This document shows positions 1-6,401 of a stretch of 41,156 bases of DNA, piece after piece. A program made the translations under genes and the position numbers. The notes below the pieces were generated by a model. It saw only the letters and a list, made by a program, of their open reading frames with translations. It was not told the origin of the DNA and did no database searches. Location of the stretch: IMG/VR virus record IMGVR_UViG_3300017987_000005, positions 1-41,156 of that record; one strand, given 5' to 3'. This stretch comes from a virus. Position 1 is the first letter of the stretch; each line of letters starts with the position of its first letter.

Positions 1-33
1 AACCTAGCGTGTCTGCCATTCCACCACAAGGAC
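1..33 (-). tRNA. tRNA 5' part, probably Leu (runs off the window)
   Basis: GTCCTTG-TG-GTGGAATGGCAGACAC-G-CTAGG-TT; Leu-type D arm; anticodon lies outside the window. Confidence 0.75.
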
Positions 34-61
34 AAATCTCTATATTTCAAAGAGCGATATT

Positions 62-139
62 TGGTCGGGGTGAGAAGATTCGAACTTCCGACCTCAGCGT
101 CCCGAACGCTGCGCGCTAGCCAAACTGCGCTACACCCCG
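62..139 (-). tRNA. tRNA-Pro(CGG)
   Basis: Cloverleaf; anticodon arm CAGCG-TTCGGGA-CGCTG; TTCGAAT T-loop; encoded CCA. Confidence 0.95.
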
Positions 140-147
140 GAATAATC

Positions 148-222
148 TGGTACCCTCGGCAGGAGTCGAACCTGAACTAAGACGTTCGTAGCGTCTCGTG
201 CTATCCATTACACTACGAGGGC
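148..222 (-). tRNA. tRNA-Arg(ACG)
   Basis: AGACG-CTACGAA-CGTCT; encoded CCA. Confidence 0.95.
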
Positions 223-223
223 A

Positions 224-247
224 TGGAGCTGCGAGCCGGACTCGAAC
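224..247 (-). pseudogene. 3' remnant of a disrupted tRNA-Cys
   Basis: GTTCGAGTCCGGC-TCGCAGC-T-CCA; TCGCAGC pairs with GCTGCGG of the 5' remnant at 845-885. Confidence 0.85.
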
Positions 248-253
248 GAACAA

Positions 254-330
254 TGGAGCCCCGGTCCGGATTCGAACCGGAAAATAACGGATTTGCAATC
301 CGTCCCCTTAAGCCATTTGGGTACCGGGGC
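254..330 (-). tRNA. tRNA-Cys(GCA), intact copy inside the HNH insert
   Basis: ACGGA-TTGCAAA-TCCGT; U73 discriminator; CCA. Confidence 0.95.
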
Positions 331-772
331 TTATTCGTCCGCGTTTCCATCCCAGCTCTTTAGCTGTTCTCCGGCGATGGCAATTAGCGCATACAATTAC
401 GCATTTAGCTATCTCCTTGGAAATCTTATCCCAAGAATATCTGCTCAACTTAGCGCAAATATTAAACGACTTCTTCTTACGGTCACGATGATGAAAATCG
501 AGAACGATAACATCGTCTTCTCCGCAATCTACGCACGGATGTTTTTCAAGATATGTTACGATTTTCTCGAAATTATCCGCGTACAGCCGTCGTTTACGCG
601 CTTTTGCTCTCTCAATGTACTGGTCGCGATATTTCTCATAATGCTTACGAGAGTGTCGTTTATCGCGATAGCAGTCCTTACACTGAGCATGACGCCTCCC
701 CGTCTTCTTGTCGCGGAAAAAGAAATCGTCATCCGACTTCTTCTTCTTGCAAACAGTACAAACTTTGCTCAC
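308..772 (-). CDS. HNH homing endonuclease with N-terminal Zn finger
   Basis: CxxC pairs; CVDCG...LDFHHRD...CANCHRRRT HNH signature; SD AGGAG before GTG; own promoter; stop codon lies inside tRNA-Cys. Confidence 0.88.
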   Translation of the reverse strand: MSKVCTVCKKKKSDDDFFFRDKKTGRRHAQCKDCYRDKRHSRKHYEKYRDQYIERAKARKRRLYADNFEKIVTYLEKHPCVDCGEDDVIVLDFHHRDRKKKSFNICAKLSRYSWDKISKEIAKCVIVCANCHRRRTAKELGWKRGRISPGTQMA

Positions 773-799
773 AATAAGTCTCCTATTAAAGTCATACTT

Positions 800-827
800 A
801 TTGTAGCAGTAATCCGGGAATCGTCAA
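800..827 (-). promoter_or_regulatory. sigma70-type promoter of the HNH cassette
   Basis: TTGACG-N16-TACAAT with extended -10 TG. Confidence 0.75.
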
Positions 828-844
828 CTACAAAACCATAAAAA

Positions 845-885
845 GTTTTGCAGACCGACGCCTTAACCAGTTTGGCTACCGCAGC
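845..885 (-). pseudogene. 5' remnant of a disrupted tRNA-Cys(GCA)
   Basis: GCTGCGG-TA-GCCAAACTGGTTAAGGC-G-TCGGT-CTGCAAA-AC, then breaks off. Confidence 0.85.
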
Positions 886-886
886 A

Positions 887-962
887 TGGTACCCCCACGG
901 GGAGTCGAACCCCGATTACTGGACTGAGAATCCAGCGTCCTAAACCATTAGACGATGAGGGC
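887..962 (-). tRNA. tRNA-Glu(CTC)
   Basis: CTGGA-TTCTCAG-TCCAG; CCA. Confidence 0.95.
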
Positions 963-994
963 AAACAACAAATATAAAAGAACAATAATTGAAA

Positions 995-1142
995 TCCAGG
1001 AAAGTAGCGAATAGAGTAACGCTCTGCTTACGCAGTGCTTGCTCTACCATTGAGCGACGGGGGCATTTATAAAACATCTATAATAACAAGCGCCCCCGAT
1101 TAGAATCGAACTAATGAAGTAACTCTACTCTTCATCACTGGA
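995..1142 (-). ncRNA. Y RNA-like (YrlA-type) copy F
   Basis: Paired ends TCCAGTGATGAAG / CTACTTTCCTGGA; GTTACTTC motif; T arm, closed acceptor stem, then D arm (permuted tRNA order); downstream of rsr. Confidence 0.8.
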
Positions 1143-1167
1143 CATCAATTGTAAAAGAACAAAATAA

Positions 1168-1303
1168 AAGCAGGAAAGTAGCGCAAGAAGTACGTCAGTG
1201 CTGGATTCGAACCAGCGTCTCCCGTCTTACGACGGGCGCTCTAGCCACTAAGCTAACCGTCTGCGTATGGTAGACGAAGTAACTCCTCACTTCATCACTG
1301 CTT
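1168..1303 (-). ncRNA. Y RNA-like copy E (tRNA domain in normal order)
   Basis: Same terminal handle; internal D arm, GTAA-capped arm, then T arm. Confidence 0.78.
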
Positions 1304-1320
1304 TTGAAAGAACAAAAATA

Positions 1321-1470
1321 AGACAGGAAAGCGGCGAGAAGAGAGACGCCCCGAAGGGCAAGTGCTCTACCAACTGAGCTACTCTCCCATATAAAAGCGG
1401 GAGAGGCTGGACTCGAACCAGCGACCACTCGGTTAAAAGCCGAAGTAACTCTACTCTATCATCACTGTCT
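1321..1470 (-). ncRNA. Y RNA-like copy D (permuted, Lys-TTT anticodon-like arm)
   Basis: Handle AGACAGTGATGATAG / CCGCTTTCCTGTCT; TCGG-CTTTTAA-CCGA; T arm; CTCTCCC/GGGAGAG acceptor stem; D arm. Confidence 0.8.
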
Positions 1471-1481
1471 TAATATCAAAA

Positions 1482-1546
1482 AGGAGGCAAGTGTCCGGAT
1501 AGGCACGTTTGTCTGATACGAAGTATCCCATCCTATCAGCACTCCT
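1482..1546 (-). ncRNA. Minimal Y RNA-like copy C (handle only, 65 nt)
   Basis: AGGAGTGCTGATAG...GATACTTC...ACACTTGCCTCCT; no tRNA domain. Confidence 0.7.
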
Positions 1547-1559
1547 ATAAATATTAAAA

Positions 1560-1711
1560 TCCGGGCAAGCGGCGTAAAGAGTTTTGTAGTTTGTAGCTAA
1601 GTAAACTTCAGGGGTATCAGCTACATTTCCCCTGACAGGAATCGAACCTGCTATCTCATTTGTTTCAAAAATGTGTTTAACCGAAGTAACTCATTTACTA
1701 TCAGCACCGGA
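1560..1711 (-). ncRNA. Y RNA-like copy B (permuted, GAA anticodon-like arm)
   Basis: TCCGGTGCTGATAG / CCGCTTGCCCGGA; CATTT-TTGAAAC-AAATG; T arm; CAGGGG/CCCCTG stem. Confidence 0.78.
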
Positions 1712-1741
1712 ATAAATTTCATTGTTAAAGAACAAAAGGTC

Positions 1742-1880
1742 TCGGGCAAGTAGTCGAAAAGAGGACTGTATACGCGTGCTGCCATTACACTATCCCCCGA
1801 TATAAATGGGCGGGGGAGAAGGAATCGAACCTTCACCGCGGCATCCGAATTGCGAAGTATCTCTCTTCTATCAGCACCGA
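1742..1880 (-). ncRNA. Y RNA-like copy A (permuted)
   Basis: TCGGTGCTGATAG / CTACTTGCCCGA; T arm GAAGG-TTCGATT-CCTTC; TCCCCCG/CGGGGGA stem; D arm. Confidence 0.8.
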
Positions 1881-1900
1881 TTCCTAATTTTCAAAAAACG

Positions 1901-2013
1901 GAGGGAGACAGGAACTAGTAGCCCGCATGGTTCAAAGCAATGCTGATTAACGTCTTAGTCAGCAGTGTGCTCCCAGCTCTTATTACTTTTGGGCTTGCTC
2001 CTGCCACTCCCTC
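1901..2013 (-). ncRNA. Candidate structured RNA immediately 3' of rsr
   Basis: Nested pairing GAGGGAG/CTCCCTC, GCAGGAGC/GTTCCTGT, AGCCC/GGGCT, plus a TGCTGA..TCAGCA hairpin. Confidence 0.55.
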
Positions 2014-2020
2014 TCTATTA

Positions 2021-3523
2021 TCACAGAACAATCTTCTTGATTTCCTCCACGGCATCGCTTCCCTCACGGATAGCGACGAGCATGTCGAAAACCTTGTCAC
2101 TCCATCCGCTGATGAAGTAGACATCGTCGTCCATCACAGACAGCGGAGTCGTTCCGTATCCAGCAAGGTCGAAGAAATACGCTTCCGACTTAGGGCTCTT
2201 CTTCTTGTACTTCTTCCAGATTTCATGGAACTGAGTTCCCGAAGCACGGTGACTCACGCTCCCTTCCATCCCCATGTCACTCCAAAGCTGTGCATCAGAG
2301 AAGAAGAAAACACGGTCAGACTTCACATTCTGCTTGATGAGGTAATCAATTACCTTCCATCCGTTCGTGCTGTATCCGACCTCTCCCTCGATGTCATGCA
2401 GACGCATCGTGTTCGAGAGCGGAGTCTTGCTCGTGAAGCGCTTAACCTTCCAGTCATCTCCGAAGATTCCGACAATCGAATTCTTGGTCTTCAGCTTCAA
2501 GAGCTGACCAAGCAGCAATCCGATGTCGTAATGCTCTACGGACGAACGCGGAGCAATCGGGTCCTGCATTGAACCAGAGACGTCACATGCAATGACGTTA
2601 CGTCCCTCTGCAATCAGCTTCATATTCGAGATACTCAGCTTAGCAGCTTCCTCCAGCGCCTCCATGACAAGCTCTGCGTGGTCATTCTTGTGACTCTCAA
2701 TCATACGGAACGCGCTCAGGTACCTGAACGGGAACTGGCGCGAATTCGCAACAGCCTTCTCGTTCGAAAGGTACGCGCATACCATGTTGATGTGCTTCTC
2801 AGAAACACCGGCATCAAGAATGTTACGCAGGTTCCTCAACAGAGCCATGTAACCAACCTTCTTACTTTCAATGAGCGATTCCCACTTCTGCTTCTTACTG
2901 CGTCCGTCCGGCTTCGACAGGATAGTCTCCCAAGTGAACGGGACTTCCAGGTCTCCGTCCTTGACCTTCCTGAAAAGGTCCGACTGTCCCTTGTCTACCG
3001 GCTTCGGGCGGCAGATACGCAGGGCATCACGCAGGGTAATCTCGTAATCCCTGTTATACTTCGCGAACTGATACTCGTCAAACTTGCTGAACGCGGAAGC
3101 AACTCCCTTACGAATCTGCTTCGCTATAGGCTTCAGCTCCTCGCGTCCGCTCAGCTCCTTGTAGCATGCAAGAATCTCGTAAAGCTCATCCGCACGCTGA
3201 ATGACGCGCTCAGTGACGGTCGAAACCAGTCCCTCCGGCGTATCCAGCTTCGCAAGCTCTACAGCAAGCACAAGCGGTACAGTACGCAGGTACATACTCT
3301 CACGAGCATATACCGCCAGCTTTCCAATGAACTCAGGGCTGACACACTTCATCAGCTCCCGCATCCTGGACATCGTGTTCTTCTCAGAACGATAGAACTG
3401 ATTGTCCAGAACAGTCGTGCAAACAAGCGAGTAAAGCTCCATGTCCTCGGTCATCCCGAAGGCATCGCCTCCCGCGAAGTTCTGCACACGCGACTTACTC
3501 TTCGTCTTCGAATACTTACTCAT
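2021..3523 (-). CDS. rsr: Ro60-related TROVE/vWA RNA-binding protein
   Basis: 500 aa; TROVE motifs (YARESMYLRTVP, FDEYQFAKYNR, TWET, YMALLRNLRN, QFPFRY); vWA MIDAS DVSGSM. Confidence 0.95.
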   Translation of the reverse strand: MSKYSKTKSKSRVQNFAGGDAFGMTEDMELYSLVCTTVLDNQFYRSEKNTMSRMRELMKCVSPEFIGKLAVYARESMYLRTVPLVLAVELAKLDTPEGLVSTVTERVIQRADELYEILACYKELSGREELKPIAKQIRKGVASAFSKFDEYQFAKYNRDYEITLRDALRICRPKPVDKGQSDLFRKVKDGDLEVPFTWETILSKPDGRSKKQKWESLIESKKVGYMALLRNLRNILDAGVSEKHINMVCAYLSNEKAVANSRQFPFRYLSAFRMIESHKNDHAELVMEALEEAAKLSISNMKLIAEGRNVIACDVSGSMQDPIAPRSSVEHYDIGLLLGQLLKLKTKNSIVGIFGDDWKVKRFTSKTPLSNTMRLHDIEGEVGYSTNGWKVIDYLIKQNVKSDRVFFFSDAQLWSDMGMEGSVSHRASGTQFHEIWKKYKKKSPKSEAYFFDLAGYGTTPLSVMDDDVYFISGWSDKVFDMLVAIREGSDAVEEIKKIVL

Positions 3524-3559
3524 GTCATCACTCCTTTACAAAAAGAGGAAAGTTAAAAA

Positions 3560-3637
3560 TGGTATCCCGGACGGGACTCGAACCCGCAATCTACACCTTG
3601 AAAGGGTGTTGAGTTTAACCAATTACTCTACCGGGAC
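3560..3637 (-). tRNA. tRNA-Glu(TTC)
   Basis: ACACC-CTTTCAA-GGTGT; CCA. Confidence 0.95.
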
Positions 3638-3655
3638 ACATCCGCTTATCTTCAA

Positions 3656-3730
3656 TGGTAGGAACGGCGAGAATCGAACTCACATCTTAAGCTCCGGAGG
3701 CTTATGTTCTATCCGTTGAACTACGCTCCC
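3656..3730 (-). tRNA. tRNA-Arg(CCG)
   Basis: TAAGC-CTCCGGA-GCTTA; CCA. Confidence 0.95.
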
Positions 3731-3731
3731 T

Positions 3732-3818
3732 TGGTAGGCGAGGCGGGATTTGCACCCGCACGAGCTTACGCCCATAGGATTTTAAGTCCTAAACGTCTTC
3801 TAATTCCGCCACTCGCCC
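3732..3818 (-). tRNA. tRNA-Leu(TAA)
   Basis: TAGGA-CTTAAAA-TCCTA; long variable arm; T-loop TGCAAAT; CCA. Confidence 0.92.
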
Positions 3819-3821
3819 GTA

Positions 3822-3894
3822 TACCCCGAGAGGGATTCGAACCCCCAAATTCTCCGTCTTGAGCGGAGCGCCTATGCCGTTCGGCTACCGGGGC
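3822..3894 (-). tRNA. tRNA-Leu(CAA), short variable loop, no encoded CCA
   Basis: CTCCG-CTCAAGA-CGGAG; 5-nt variable region; A73. Confidence 0.85.
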
Positions 3895-3899
3895 GTATC

Positions 3900-3960
3900 T
3901 GGCGGGGCACTGAGTCATTTCTCCGGCGAGCGTTCCTTCTCGCTTGCGTACGCATGCCCC
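3900..3960 (-). ncRNA. 61-nt mini tRNA-like element
   Basis: Acceptor GGGGCAT/GTGCCCC-G-CCA enclosing three non-canonical hairpins. Confidence 0.55.
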
Positions 3961-3968
3961 GTAATTTC

Positions 3969-4055
3969 TGGTGGGCCGGGGAAGACTCGAACTTCCAACG
4001 TCACTCGGAACCTGATTTACAGTCAGGGGCAATACCAGTTATGCTCTACCGACCC
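3969..4055 (-). tRNA. tRNA-Tyr(GTA)
   Basis: CCTGA-CTGTAAA-TCAGG; long variable region; CCA. Confidence 0.92.
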
Positions 4056-4056
4056 G

Positions 4057-4134
4057 TGGTGGACTCGGGGGATATCGACTCCCCAACCTCTCGGGCTTCA
4101 ACCGAGCGCTCTACCAAAAATGAGCTACAAGTCC
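4057..4134 (-). tRNA. tRNA-Phe(GAA), atypical T-loop
   Basis: CTCGG-TTGAAGC-CCGAG; T-loop GTCGATA; CCA. Confidence 0.9.
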
Positions 4135-4137
4135 GTA

Positions 4138-4213
4138 TGGTGGGCACAGCAGGGCTTGAACCTGCGACTTTCAGCGTGTCGAGCTGACGCTCTTCCAACT
4201 GAGCTATGCGCCC
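4138..4213 (-). tRNA. tRNA-Val(GAC), C33
   Basis: TCAGC-TCGACAC-GCTGA; CCA. Confidence 0.92.
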
Positions 4214-4245
4214 ACAGTAAACTTTGTTTTCAAAGAACAATATCA

Positions 4246-4334
4246 TGGCGGAGCGGGGGAGACTCGAACTCCCGCAACGGAAATCCGTTGTACTGGGTTC
4301 CAGCCAGTTGCCATAGCCACTAGGCGACCGCTCC
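4246..4334 (-). tRNA. tRNA-Ser(GGA)
   Basis: ACTGG-CTGGAAC-CCAGT; long variable arm; G73-CCA. Confidence 0.95.
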
Positions 4335-4343
4335 GTAAATTCC

Positions 4344-4430
4344 TGGCGGAGGATGAGAGACTCGAACTCTCAAGACGCGAACGTCCACTTGTTTTCGAGA
4401 CAAGCTGCTTACCAGTTAGCAAAATCCTCC
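4344..4430 (-). tRNA. tRNA-Ser(CGA)
   Basis: CTTGT-CTCGAAA-ACAAG; long arm; GCCA. Confidence 0.95.
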
Positions 4431-4431
4431 G

Positions 4432-4520
4432 TGGCGGAGAGGACAGGACTCGAACCTGCAAAGCATTGCTGCCTCCTTGTTTTCAAAACAAGTCCCCACA
4501 CCTACTGGGTCAACCTCTCC
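4432..4520 (-). tRNA. tRNA-Ser(TGA)
   Basis: CTTGT-TTTGAAA-ACAAG; long arm; GCCA. Confidence 0.93.
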
Positions 4521-4554
4521 ATATTTGCAATCAATTTCAAAAGAACAATATATA

Positions 4555-4643
4555 TGGCGGAGCGACCGAGAGTTGAACTCGGAAGGGCGTATCTCATCCC
4601 GACAGATTAGCAATCTGTTGCCATACCGTTAGGCGACCGCTCC
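4555..4643 (-). tRNA. tRNA-Ser(GCT)
   Basis: ACAGA-TTGCTAA-TCTGT; long arm; GCCA. Confidence 0.95.
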
Positions 4644-4653
4644 GCGTTATTTC

Positions 4654-4728
4654 TGGCTCCAGGGAGAGGACTCGAACCTCCAACCGTCGGCTTAACAGGC
4701 CGCCACACTACCGTTGTGCTACCCTGGA
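4654..4728 (-). tRNA. tRNA-Asn(GTT)
   Basis: CGGC-CTGTTAA-GCCG; GCCA. Confidence 0.93.
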
Positions 4729-4750
4729 ATATCAGCTAATTGTAAAAAAA

Positions 4751-4870
4751 CGTGCAGCTTCTAGGCGCTCAGTTATTCCCCGACAGGAAGCGCTCCACGA
4801 AATTGTCGGGCCAGATGTCCTCATGTCAAAGCTGCTGGAGGACCCACGATTCTTCAAACGTCTCGCGACG
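4751..4870 (-). ncRNA. Candidate pseudoknotted RNA between tRNA-Trp and tRNA-Asn
   Basis: GTCCTC/GAGGAC crosses GCAGCTT/AAGCTGC; CCCGACA/TGTCGGG hairpin; CGTC-GCGA-GACG tetraloop. Confidence 0.5.
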
Positions 4871-4879
4871 ATTATTGCT

Positions 4880-4953
4880 TGGCAGGCCGTGCAGGAATCG
4901 AACCCGCATAAAGAGTTTTGGAGGCTCTCGTGTTACCATTACACTAACGACCT
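4880..4953 (-). tRNA. tRNA-Trp(CCA)
   Basis: AGAG-C-CTCCAAA-A-CTCT; GCCA. Confidence 0.93.
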
Positions 4954-4974
4954 AAATTTTATCAAAGAACATAT

Positions 4975-5289
4975 GCTAGGCTCAAGCCTGCGTCCGAAAA
5001 GGGGTTAGCCCGGAGCGGACTCCATCGTGGAGTTGTCCGTGAAGGGAAAATTAAGCTAAGGGGTTTCTTTTCGGAGCTGCTGGCTTGCGCTTAGCTTAAT
5101 CCCACTCCTGGGACGACTCCCTGTTCCGCGAGTAATATATCATTACTCGGTCGGGAATCTTCCCATTTGGGATTATCGAACAAATACGATGACGCGCATT
5201 TGCACAGATTCCCTGTACCGGCAATGGCATTACCCATCACGGTGTGGAGGGATTGTCTGGTTGTGCAAATAGAATTAGTCATCATCGTA
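4975..5289 (-). ncRNA. Three tandem rod-like hairpin RNAs (4975-5095, 5098-5174, 5185-5289)
   Basis: Nested inverted repeats: CAAGCC/GGCTTG with TCCGAAAAG/CTTTTCGGA; AATCCCA/TGGGATT with CGAGTAAT/ATTACTCG; TACGATGA/TCATCGTA with ATTTGCACA/TGTGCAAAT. Confidence 0.6.
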
Positions 5290-5341
5290 CTCGTCCTTAA
5301 ACACAAAAGTCCGAAAAGGTACTTTATCAACTTACGCTATC

Positions 5342-5369
5342 ATTGTAGCATATAAAAAAGATATGTCAA
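5342..5369 (-). promoter_or_regulatory. Promoter of the tRNA/rsr/Y-RNA operon
   Basis: TTGACA-N16-TACAAT, extended -10 TG, upstream T-tracts. Confidence 0.8.
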
Positions 5370-5390
5370 GATAAAAAATAAAAAAACTTT

Positions 5391-5618
5391 TCAGCGCACC
5401 TGTATCCGAGATTTGTTACTACCCGTTTTCTTATCGATACGCCGCTGTGAACACTCGTCTGCATAATTATCAGAAATTTCGTATCCGGCCCGAAATCCTA
5501 TCTCGATTAGATTGGTCAGGACTCCAAAAAGGAAGAAAGGGAGCATCCACAACAGCATTAAAACATGCATGAAAAACAGTGGTATTACTTTAATGAAGCT
5601 CATATATAACTCCGTCAA
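5391..5618 (-). CDS. Hypothetical membrane protein
   Basis: Hydrophobic N-terminal half; operon context. Confidence 0.55.
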   Translation of the reverse strand: MTELYMSFIKVIPLFFMHVLMLLWMLPFFLFGVLTNLIEIGFRAGYEISDNYADECSQRRIDKKTGSNKSRIQVR

Positions 5619-5901
5619 TCTCAGTCATTACATTCGTATATCTCAGGTCGGTAATTATCTTCCCTTTAGCTGGTCCCTTAGATGGGTCCTCATGCTTAGC
5701 GGTGACGGATATCTCTGCTGCAACCTCTATCCTCGACTTCCCGCACTCGCATATAATAGGCAACTCAATCCGGTCCCCATTACGATAAAGCACTCGCCGA
5801 CAGATTGAGCACTGCATAGTCTTGAGTGGGGATATCGGTTTTCCATCTTTATCCATCGGTGTAATATTTTCATTCATTATGTCATTCTCCATGCAAACCA
5901 C
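5590..5901 (-). CDS. Hypothetical Zn-ribbon protein
   Basis: CSIC...CECG. Confidence 0.6.
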   Translation of the reverse strand: MVCMENDIMNENITPMDKDGKPISPLKTMQCSICRRVLYRNGDRIELPIICECGKSRIEVAAEISVTAKHEDPSKGPAKGKIITDLRYTNVMTEIDGVIYELH

Positions 5902-6401
5902 ATCGAAAAAAGTTCCGCATCACCATTAGTATATCTTCCAGATGATGATGGAAACGGATAATACTCATATTTCCTATACTCCCCATTATTATAACGAATC
6001 TTCCTGATTTTCATATCCAAAAGCTTAGCTGCGGCGCCGCGCAATACGTCCTTCATCAAAGAAATAACTTTATCCAGAATATCGAAGCACTCTTCCCGCA
6101 AAGCAAAAAACCATACTATATGTCCAAGCTCATGCATCCGGATATACCGCGATACTCCGTTGTCTCTTAAATCAATATCGTTCAGCACCATCTCTATGTC
6201 GCAATCATCCCAATCATCATGATGCCATACCCAGGGTGGCAACCCTTCGACCCACGAACGCTTCGGATATAATAATATTCGCGCAGTAGTCGAATCATCT
6301 TTAACTACGGTGACTCTGGACACCCTGCTATCTTCGACCCCGAAATCTCTCAATAAATTCCGAGCTTCCTCCTGAACTTCAAACTGGGTCATGCGAACCA
6401 C
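5877..6401 (-). CDS. Putative zincin metallopeptidase (ImmA/IrrE-like)
   Basis: HELGH plus distal ELFSMWFA; resembles 38703-39230. Confidence 0.55.
   Translation of the reverse strand: MVRMTQFEVQEEARNLLRDFGVEDSRVSRVTVVKDDSTTARILLYPKRSWVEGLPPWVWHHDDWDDCDIEMVLNDIDLRDNGVSRYIRMHELGHIVWFFALREECFDILDKVISLMKDVLRGAAAKLLDMKIRKIRYNNGEYRKYEYYPFPSSSGRYTNGDAELFSMWFAWRMT

Follow-up and report, generated by a model that had tools for sequence, protein, structure and literature searches.

An HNH endonuclease gene and an intact tRNA-Cys lodged in a broken tRNA-Cys gene of an uncultured virus: a probable free-standing homing cassette

Homing endonucleases are thought to persist either inside self-splicing introns and inteins or between genes. 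Another kind of mobile DNA, the integrative elements, are inserted in tRNA genes and bring with them a copy of the 3′ end that they displace. Here we describe a locus of the uncultured virus record IMGVR_UViG_3300017987_000005 (183,648 bp, with a 123-bp terminal repeat) in which a gene for an HNH endonuclease and an intact tRNA-Cys(GCA) lie between two remnants of an older tRNA-Cys(GCA) gene. The stretch analyzed, hereafter called the window, is the first 41 kb of this record (41,156 nt), and the locus occupies positions 224 to 885 of it. The genome holds 45 tRNA genes, nearly all in a single minus-strand array that spans the ends of the record (178,191..183,648 and 1..4,953), and the split tRNA-Cys locus is located within this array. 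The original prediction, made from the sequence alone, was that of a homing element that destroys its target tRNA gene and supplies a substitute. Our analysis makes it probable that the locus is a free-standing homing cassette which sits inside the resident tRNA-Cys gene, homes by means of its own HNH endonuclease and compensates for the loss with the tRNA that it carries.

Integrative elements resemble this locus in that a conserved tRNA gene is targeted and a functional tRNA is kept at the site. They rely, however, on integrases and attachment sites, and what they replace is confined to the 3′ part of the gene, whereas the cassette has no integrase and holds a complete, separate tRNA. Among free-standing nucleases, SegB of phage T4 is a GIY-YIG enzyme encoded in the T4 tRNA cluster, which recognizes a conserved T-arm motif, cuts at the 3′ ends of tRNA genes and is inherited at nearly 100% along with the neighboring tRNA genes (PMC2330249). 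SegB also drives amplification of the tRNA locus (PMC13096335). The cassette and SegB of T4 and T6 have in common a free-standing nuclease gene, absent from some related phages, in a phage tRNA array, a target (here putative) in tRNA genes and anchored in the T arm, co-inheritance of the nuclease with neighboring tRNA genes, and physical linkage of tRNA and nuclease gene with microhomology at the junction. The differences are that SegB is a GIY-YIG and not an HNH enzyme, that segB lies between intact tRNA genes and splits none of them, and that no spare tRNA is nested there between stumps. T4 mobE and its kin are free-standing HNH homing endonucleases that spread by “intronless homing” (PMC2790892; PMC2988022). 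Here the likeness concerns the HNH type, the free-standing state and the spread by repair of a break or nick from the nuclease-bearing genome, with co-conversion of the flanks; mobE is intergenic and stands beside an intact target gene, whereas the cassette of the window lies inside its presumed target and a second copy of the gene would compensate. Free-standing homing endonucleases in phage tRNA clusters (SegB) and free-standing HNH endonucleases (mobE) are already known, and the cassette is probably a variant of the free-standing homing endonucleases.

Two other systems keep the function of an interrupted gene. In “fractured genes”, the two halves of a split gene flank the gene of a free-standing homing endonuclease, and the protein is restored by split inteins (PMC2677866). 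Thus a conserved gene is in two, a homing endonuclease fills the gap and a function-restoring device is present, as in the window; the rescue by split inteins acts, however, at the protein level, whereas in the window neither half is functional and the element brings an entire second gene. Endonuclease open reading frames within group I introns of bacterial and phage tRNA genes are likewise selfish nucleases that occupy a tRNA gene while its function is kept, with the difference that RNA splicing preserves the function and that the site is in the anticodon loop (PMC3984707). In the window, the site extends from the 3′ strand of the anticodon stem to the T stem, bases have been deleted and function would be maintained via a second gene. 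A literature search, in which most subscription journals were outside coverage, found no account of a tRNA gene that houses a nuclease gene and, alongside it, a full spare copy of the same tRNA. The locus would represent a different route to a harmless insertion, in which a nuclease gene settles inside a conserved gene and brings the replacement for that gene.

The 5′ fragment of the old tRNA-Cys(GCA) is located at 845..885 on the minus strand, as are all features described below, and its 41 nt correspond to canonical positions 1–40. Read from 885 to 845, it comprises the acceptor strand GCTGCGG, U8-A9, the D arm, the anticodon stem, the GCA-bearing loop and two bases of the 3′ strand of the stem. 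When excised, this piece gave a 3′-truncated tRNA match (Rfam RF00005, 25.3 bits, model positions 1–39, E = 4e-4 in a small search). The 3′ fragment, at 224..247, contains 24 nt (canonical positions 53–76), namely G53, the T loop, the 3′ strand of the T stem, the acceptor strand TCGCAGC, U73 and CCA; on its own it gives no match to the tRNA model, 24 nt being too short to score. The complementarity of the two acceptor strands, already pointed out in the original prediction for these same coordinates, extends to 7/7 pairs with one G-U. As a control, the 45 tRNAs of the genome were compared with the two strands: a single 3′ strand (1/45) pairs 7/7 with GCTGCGG, and needs three G-U pairs to do so, and none of the 45 5′ strands pairs 7/7 with TCGCAGC. 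Both remnants are in register with the array. The tRNA-Glu(CUC) gene upstream (887..962; ARAGORN; Rfam 58 bits) ends one base before the 5′ fragment, and the tRNA-Arg(ACG) gene downstream (148..222; ARAGORN) begins one base past the 3′ fragment. Also, U73 on the 3′ remnant is the tRNA-Cys discriminator, which supports a single former gene.

The decisive comparison came from a relative found by using as an anchor a Ro60/TROVE gene located 1.1 kb away. Its homologue (P0122, 81% identical) lies on a 3,644-bp ENA contig, L106 (sample ERZ25073477), which is collinear with the window at 77–81% DNA identity and lacks the 597-nt cassette. The shared order of genes is Arg-CCG, Glu-UUC, Ro, Y-RNA region, Glu-CUC, Cys-GCA, Arg-ACG, Pro-CGG, Leu-GAG, Leu-UAG, Leu-CAG, Met and Ala. 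Between Glu-CUC and Arg-ACG, with the same one-base spacers, L106 has at 2856–2932 a single uninterrupted 77-nt tRNA-Cys, which begins with GCTGCGG and ends with TCGCAGC-U-CCA. The 5′ remnant is identical to this gene at 37 of 41 positions, the first 28 nt without a difference and the 31:39 pair changed on both sides, and the 3′ remnant is identical to its 3′ end at all 24 positions. In the blastn comparison of L106 with the virus genome, the collinear alignment ends at window position 847 and restarts at 247. Measured against the L106 allele, the loss of “about a dozen” nucleotides is of exactly 12, canonical positions 41–52, which take in what remains of the 3′ strand of the anticodon stem, the variable loop and the greater part of the 5′ strand of the T stem. 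A relative without the insert and with an intact GCTGCGG... tRNA-Cys is what the original prediction had called for, and the idea that the fragments come from different tRNAs fails on the same contig, where one intact gene matches both. Since L106 has at the same position an intact tRNA-Cys matching both pieces, the two remnants are one former gene broken by insertion.

The inserted cassette (248..844) consists of 597 nt in place of the 12 nt of the old gene, and the promoter, HNH gene and overlapping tRNA that had been attributed to it were located where claimed, the promoter as a candidate. Past position 845 the DNA turns AT-rich and holds a sigma-70-like promoter candidate at 800..827 (TTGACG, a 16-nt spacer with TG, and TACAAT; 10/12 in the consensus scan). 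Its support is weak, as three consensus-scan sites occurred in 1.2 kb and 1.3 were expected in shuffled sequence. The HNH endonuclease gene, taken from the list of open reading frames, lies at 308..772, with an intact frame of 154 aa, a GTG start at 772 and a ribosome-binding site AGGAG at 784..780. Its TAA stop, at 310..308, falls in the D loop of the carried tRNA-Cys(GCA), which was detected at 254..330 by ARAGORN and by Rfam RF00005 (62.1 bits, for a gathering score of 29). The tRNA thus overlaps the last seven codons and the stop of the HNH gene, and six bases then separate it from the 3′ remnant. A search of positions 1..6000 against Rfam intron families, including group I (Intron_gpI), gave no match at E ≤ 1. 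With no match to an intron model and 12 nt of the tRNA gone, the cassette is free-standing and not an intron, and for the same two reasons splicing cannot rebuild the old gene, which is dead. The start codon, ribosome-binding site and promoter-like site of its own agree with the free-standing state previously proposed. We also considered an intron whose 3′ exon would borrow part of the 3′ end of the carried tRNA; this arrangement was rejected, since the variable loop would have to be 9 nt long and the T stem mismatched, and since the real sequence can be read from the L106 allele.

The carried tRNA-Cys presents a GCA anticodon, 7/7 acceptor pairs, U73, an encoded CCA and a full cloverleaf, and by these sequence features it is predicted to be a functional bacterial-type tRNA-Cys. 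It is the sole intact tRNA-Cys detected by ARAGORN in the 183.6-kb genome. With the intact gene of L106 and the dead stumps, the breakage proposed at the outset is borne out and the complementation is supported. The carried tRNA shares 79% identity with the tRNA-Cys of L106 and 53–70% with eleven tRNA-Cys genes of other phage-like contigs among the loci analyzed, which suggests a diverged allele that stems from the same broad group of phages. The term “isoacceptor” used for it in the original prediction was loose, as the anticodon is the same. Differences between the old and carried alleles are located in the variable loop and in the anticodon stem. Around the break, the carried tRNA departs from the L106 allele at about 5 of 12–13 bases; positions 41–52, the putative target site, are deleted from the stumps.

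The HNH protein matched three PHROGs families, phrog_2255 (E = 3.6e-33), phrog_3106 (E = 4.9e-21) and phrog_4234 (E = 2.7e-12), all annotated as HNH endonuclease, and it retrieved nothing from Pfam-A at E ≤ 0.01. Approximately 200 homologues at 35–47% identity share an N-terminal CxxC...CxxC, an invariant C-V-D-C-G-E segment, a catalytic His and a C-A-N-C-H-R-R-R-T end. In an alignment of 38 sequences, C80, C83, H95, C128, N130 and H132 were invariant and C131 was present in at least 90% of the rows, which together cover the catalytic His, the structural Asn, the metal-binding His and the two CxxC pairs around the core expected of HNH enzymes; the window protein holds all invariant columns by construction. 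It reads H-H at positions 94–95, where most members of the family have D-H. The AlphaFold2 (AF2) model is confident, with a predicted local distance difference test (pLDDT) score of 92.3, and consists of a small zinc ribbon, a helix of 39 residues and a C-terminal core that is compact. Fold matches of this model were weak: the best VIA Z was 4.1, for the Gme HNH nicking endonuclease, Cap5, T4 endonuclease VII and Hpy99I appeared in Foldseek at E = 0.65–2.4, and no Foldseek match reached E ≤ 0.001. A sequence profile search of the PDB gave nothing below E = 0.1. The assignment to HNH is therefore based on sequence and not on the fold. The nuclease looks functional because of its intact frame, its family-invariant residues and the PHROGs match at E = 3.6e-33.

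The association of this nuclease with tRNA genes is not limited to the window. A profile scan of IMG/VR returned 80 loci which, with L002 and the window, make up a phage set of 82. In 27 of these 82 loci, a tRNA on the same strand starts at most 60 nt from the end of the HNH alignment, and in eight of the 27 this linked tRNA is the only one within 3.4 kb. A scan of bacterial genomes found a tRNA within 1.5 kb in 78 of 80 loci; in 42 of the 80 it abuts the 3′ end of the HNH gene, the tRNAs being mostly Gly-UCC, Arg-UCG and Gly-CCC. In order to detect further stumps, the linked tRNA was aligned to the unannotated flanks, with mismatched locus pairs as control (99th percentile 22, maximum 24). 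Stumps of a 5′ end of the same identity scored, upstream of the HNH gene, 33 in the window, 38 in L035 (Lys), 28 in L036 (Trp), 34 in L055 (Gly) and 23 in L087 (Met), and L067, the orthologue of L087, likewise has a tRNA-Met 5′ stump. Besides the window, both stumps are kept in L035 (Lys), L036 (Trp) and L151 (Arg), and the 5′ stump only in L055 (Gly), L087 and L067 (Met) and L150 (Arg); L150 and L151 are bacterial loci with the nested layout at a tRNA-Arg. The 3′ stumps of L035 and L036 come directly after the carried tRNA, and their acceptor strands are complementary to those of the 5′ stumps. For L036, intact tRNA-Trp genes of two viral contigs (L104 and L105) match both stumps, and the insertion apparently occurred without loss of bases, between positions 48 and 49. 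Left-hand breaks are found at about positions 39–43 (in L036 possibly as late as 48) and right-hand breaks at 49–54 in all nested cases. Wherever a nested case retains a recognizable stump, the broken and the carried tRNA are of the same identity (Cys, Lys, Trp, Arg in two cases, Gly and Met). No intron family was matched in L035, L036, L055 and L087 at E ≤ 1.

Taken together, these data suggest the following mechanism. The HNH endonuclease would recognize, in relatives that infect the same cell, tRNA-Cys genes which are of the old type and still intact, and would cut or nick them past the anticodon stem, immediately 5′ of the T loop. Repair of the break from the cassette-bearing genome, with the stumps and the neighboring array as homology, would then copy the cassette in. 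SegB of T4 is a precedent for such homing. An occupied site would no longer hold the target and would not be cut. The carried tRNA, with its approximately 5 of 12–13 different bases around the break, would escape cutting and restore the function lost by the insertion. Over time the stumps would decay, leaving the tight pairs of an HNH gene followed by a tRNA that dominate the nuclease family. Cleavage of the intact old allele and resistance of the carried copy are thus what we infer from the sequences. As to the family as a whole, the chances appear evenly divided as to whether it forms a distinct class of homing elements that invade tRNA genes, each equipped with a full copy of the tRNA concerned that presumably resists cutting.

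Several observations weigh against the homing cassette. Clean homing should not delete 12 nt, and no direct repeats were found flanking the insert, so that either the founding insertion was illegitimate or the bases were lost later. The stumps agree with the uninterrupted gene of L106 at 61 of 65 positions (94%). For orthologous tRNAs that are intact in both the window phage and L106, identity is 60–92%, typically about 79%; the stumps are therefore closer to L106 than the carried tRNA-Cys with its 79%, which raises some doubt as to which copy is the vertical ortholog of the lineage. Such a high identity may reflect unusual conservation of tRNA-Cys in the phage group; alternatively, the cassette may bring the stumps along as its homology arms. 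The sole empty site is in a relative that is about 20% diverged, and the event cannot be dated from it. Also, the eight contigs that carry the exact HNH protein, all 100% identical to the window and drawn from at least four samples in ENA and Logan (ERZ27256770, ERZ27256773, SRR6963311 and SRR6963352), present no polymorphism of the insert within the population. Lastly, the HNH tree has poor resolution, and members linked to tRNAs of one type do not group together on it (17 changes, for a shuffle mean of 18.7 and a range of 15–20). As the phylogeny does not track tRNA type, either the specificity is labile or the tree lacks resolution.

Some of these points would also be expected if the locus were a passive scar, in which a cassette landed illegitimately in tRNA-Cys without the action of its own nuclease, the HNH having another or a generic target, such as a T-loop motif in the manner of SegB, and promoting the reshuffling or amplification of the array. 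The 12-nt deletion and the lack of direct repeats do resemble illegitimate joining, and the HNH phylogeny is independent of tRNA type. SegB itself has many tRNA genes as substrates and brings about the segmental amplification of tRNA loci (PMC2330249; PMC13096335), and every right-hand break is immediately 5′ to the T loop, whose conserved motif is common to all tRNAs. However, a random landing in arrays of 20–45 tRNAs would not produce the same identity for the carried and the broken tRNA in every nested case, and the break coordinates recur within a few bases, so we consider a passive scar unlikely. A swap under counter-defense would place the selection on the tRNA instead: the incoming tRNA-Cys would resist a host defense that cleaves tRNAs, and the HNH would merely spread or amplify it. 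Phage tRNAs that resist host nucleases acting on the anticodon or variable loop, and the amplification of such tRNAs by SegB, are documented (PMC13096335), and it is in the variable loop and anticodon stem that our two alleles differ. Yet no defense targeting tRNA-Cys was identified at the locus, and the layout recurs at no fewer than six tRNA identities and on bacterial chromosomes, which points to a general property of the element. Such a swap, which is compatible with the homing cassette and does not exclude it, seems quite improbable to us as the explanation of the locus, more so than the scar.

Could the two pieces instead be the exons of a tRNA-Cys that still functions and whose halves are brought together by trans-splicing, by self-splicing or by splicing that depends on a protein? 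Among the tRNA genes of bacteria and phages, some do host group I introns with endonuclease genes (PMC3984707), and the insertion in L036 seemingly removes no bases. In the window, however, the 12 bases of the L106 gene are gone at both ends of the insert (three 3′ bases of the anticodon stem, the variable loop and four of the five 5′ bases of the T stem), the intron searches of 1..6000 and of the four other loci were negative and the insert holds a complete tRNA with the same anticodon. We hold such a split gene to be extremely improbable, and the same can be said of a chance juxtaposition of pieces from different tRNAs or of an assembly chimera. The former could invoke the one unrelated 3′ strand in 45 that also pairs 7/7 with GCTGCGG if three G-U pairs are allowed, but the intact L106 gene matches both pieces; the latter is contradicted by the independent assembly of the identical sequence on eight contigs, from at least four samples.

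If the homing cassette is what it appears to be, the family would represent a third strategy beside splicing, as used by introns and inteins, and settlement between genes. The stumps could serve as portable homology arms, since tRNA genes are conserved across unrelated genomes, and the element could move to distant phages and to bacterial chromosomes. Their decay would leave many tight HNH-tRNA pairs in phage arrays and bacterial genomes, and the element would drive the turnover of tRNA alleles. The mechanism, if it holds, would account for the HNH genes and tRNA stumps that litter phage tRNA arrays, for the quick turnover of isoacceptor copies and for the presence of one HNH family abutting tRNAs in both phages and bacteria. 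For annotation, it means that tRNA stumps beside HNH genes should be read as scars and not as novel small RNAs. The locus also offers a pair of a filled site (the window) and an empty site (L106).

Other searches for relatives were less productive. A blastn search of INPHARED phages with window positions 1–1500 retrieved scattered tRNA matches only and no relative. The IMG/VR scans with exact patterns of the old tRNA-Cys gave 0 matches each once the window's own record was excluded, the scan of bacterial genome contigs for the old D arm gave 0 matches, and so did the search for the pattern of an empty site of L035. The Ro/TROVE relatives in IMG/VR are all at most 50% identical and have no conserved array, and the Ro relatives P0124 to P0127 lie on contigs that have a different context or end short of the site. 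A scan of metagenomes with a gapped pattern of both acceptor ends found one intact tRNA-Cys, on contig L023, with the same acceptor stem, U73 and CCA and with different inner arms. This gene is supportive, but it is not an empty site. At 4497–4657, L023 (metagenome contig Ga0233415_10002272) contains a phage-like tRNA array with two different tandem tRNA-Cys(GCA) genes, and the same array also doubles tRNA-His (two genes) and tRNA-Leu(UAA) (two genes).

The overlap between the HNH gene and its tRNA is a frequent arrangement. About 20 of the 27 phage loci with a linked tRNA (L026, L037, L045, L046, L050, L053, L064 and others) have the HNH stop codon within that tRNA, often at U8-A9-R10; in the window it is in the D loop. 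A cut by RNase P at the 5′ end of the tRNA would strip the stop codon from the HNH message, and the resulting non-stop mRNA could limit expression of the nuclease. The two orthologous cassettes L067 and L087, both on IMG/VR contigs, are 83.5% identical over 3.3 kb, with HNH gene and tRNA behind the tRNA-Met 5′ stump. The carried tRNA of L067 has the anticodon CGU in place of CAU; the two tRNAs are otherwise homologous, and a single anticodon base has apparently changed. Among bacterial metagenome-assembled genomes (L116–L195), a tRNA-Pro(GGG) / HNH / tRNA-Gly(UCC) arrangement is conserved in Solirubrobacterales, and the HNH gene lies beside tRNA-Arg(UCG) or tRNA-Gly(CCC) in Chloroflexota, Acidobacteriota and Patescibacteria.

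The virus genome also has, outside the window, a paralogue of the HNH gene with 34% identity (open reading frame at about 180707..180303, minus strand, in the region 180280–180916), which a start-free frame extends upstream to about 180716. Its stop runs directly into the 3′ stump of a tRNA, from about position 51 (T loop, acceptor strand, A73 and CCA), without a carried tRNA between the two. This stump is in register with the array, one base before tRNA-Lys(CUU). Upstream of the paralogue lies an intact tRNA-Lys(UUU), preceded by a decayed 5′ piece that resembles tRNA-Lys and has an acceptor strand that does not fit the stump.

Two minor features remain to be mentioned around the locus. A 12-nt inverted repeat, 92% complementary, links 807–818, in the spacer of the promoter candidate, and 910–921, in the variable-loop/T-stem region of tRNA-Glu(CUC); it is probably due to chance. 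The Ro60/TROVE gene (Pfam PF05731, E = 3.9e-34) and Y-RNA-like units with a repeated handle motif extend over 995–1880 and 2021–3523 of the window, an arrangement kept in L106, and a weak match to YrlA was detected in these units at 1361–1429.

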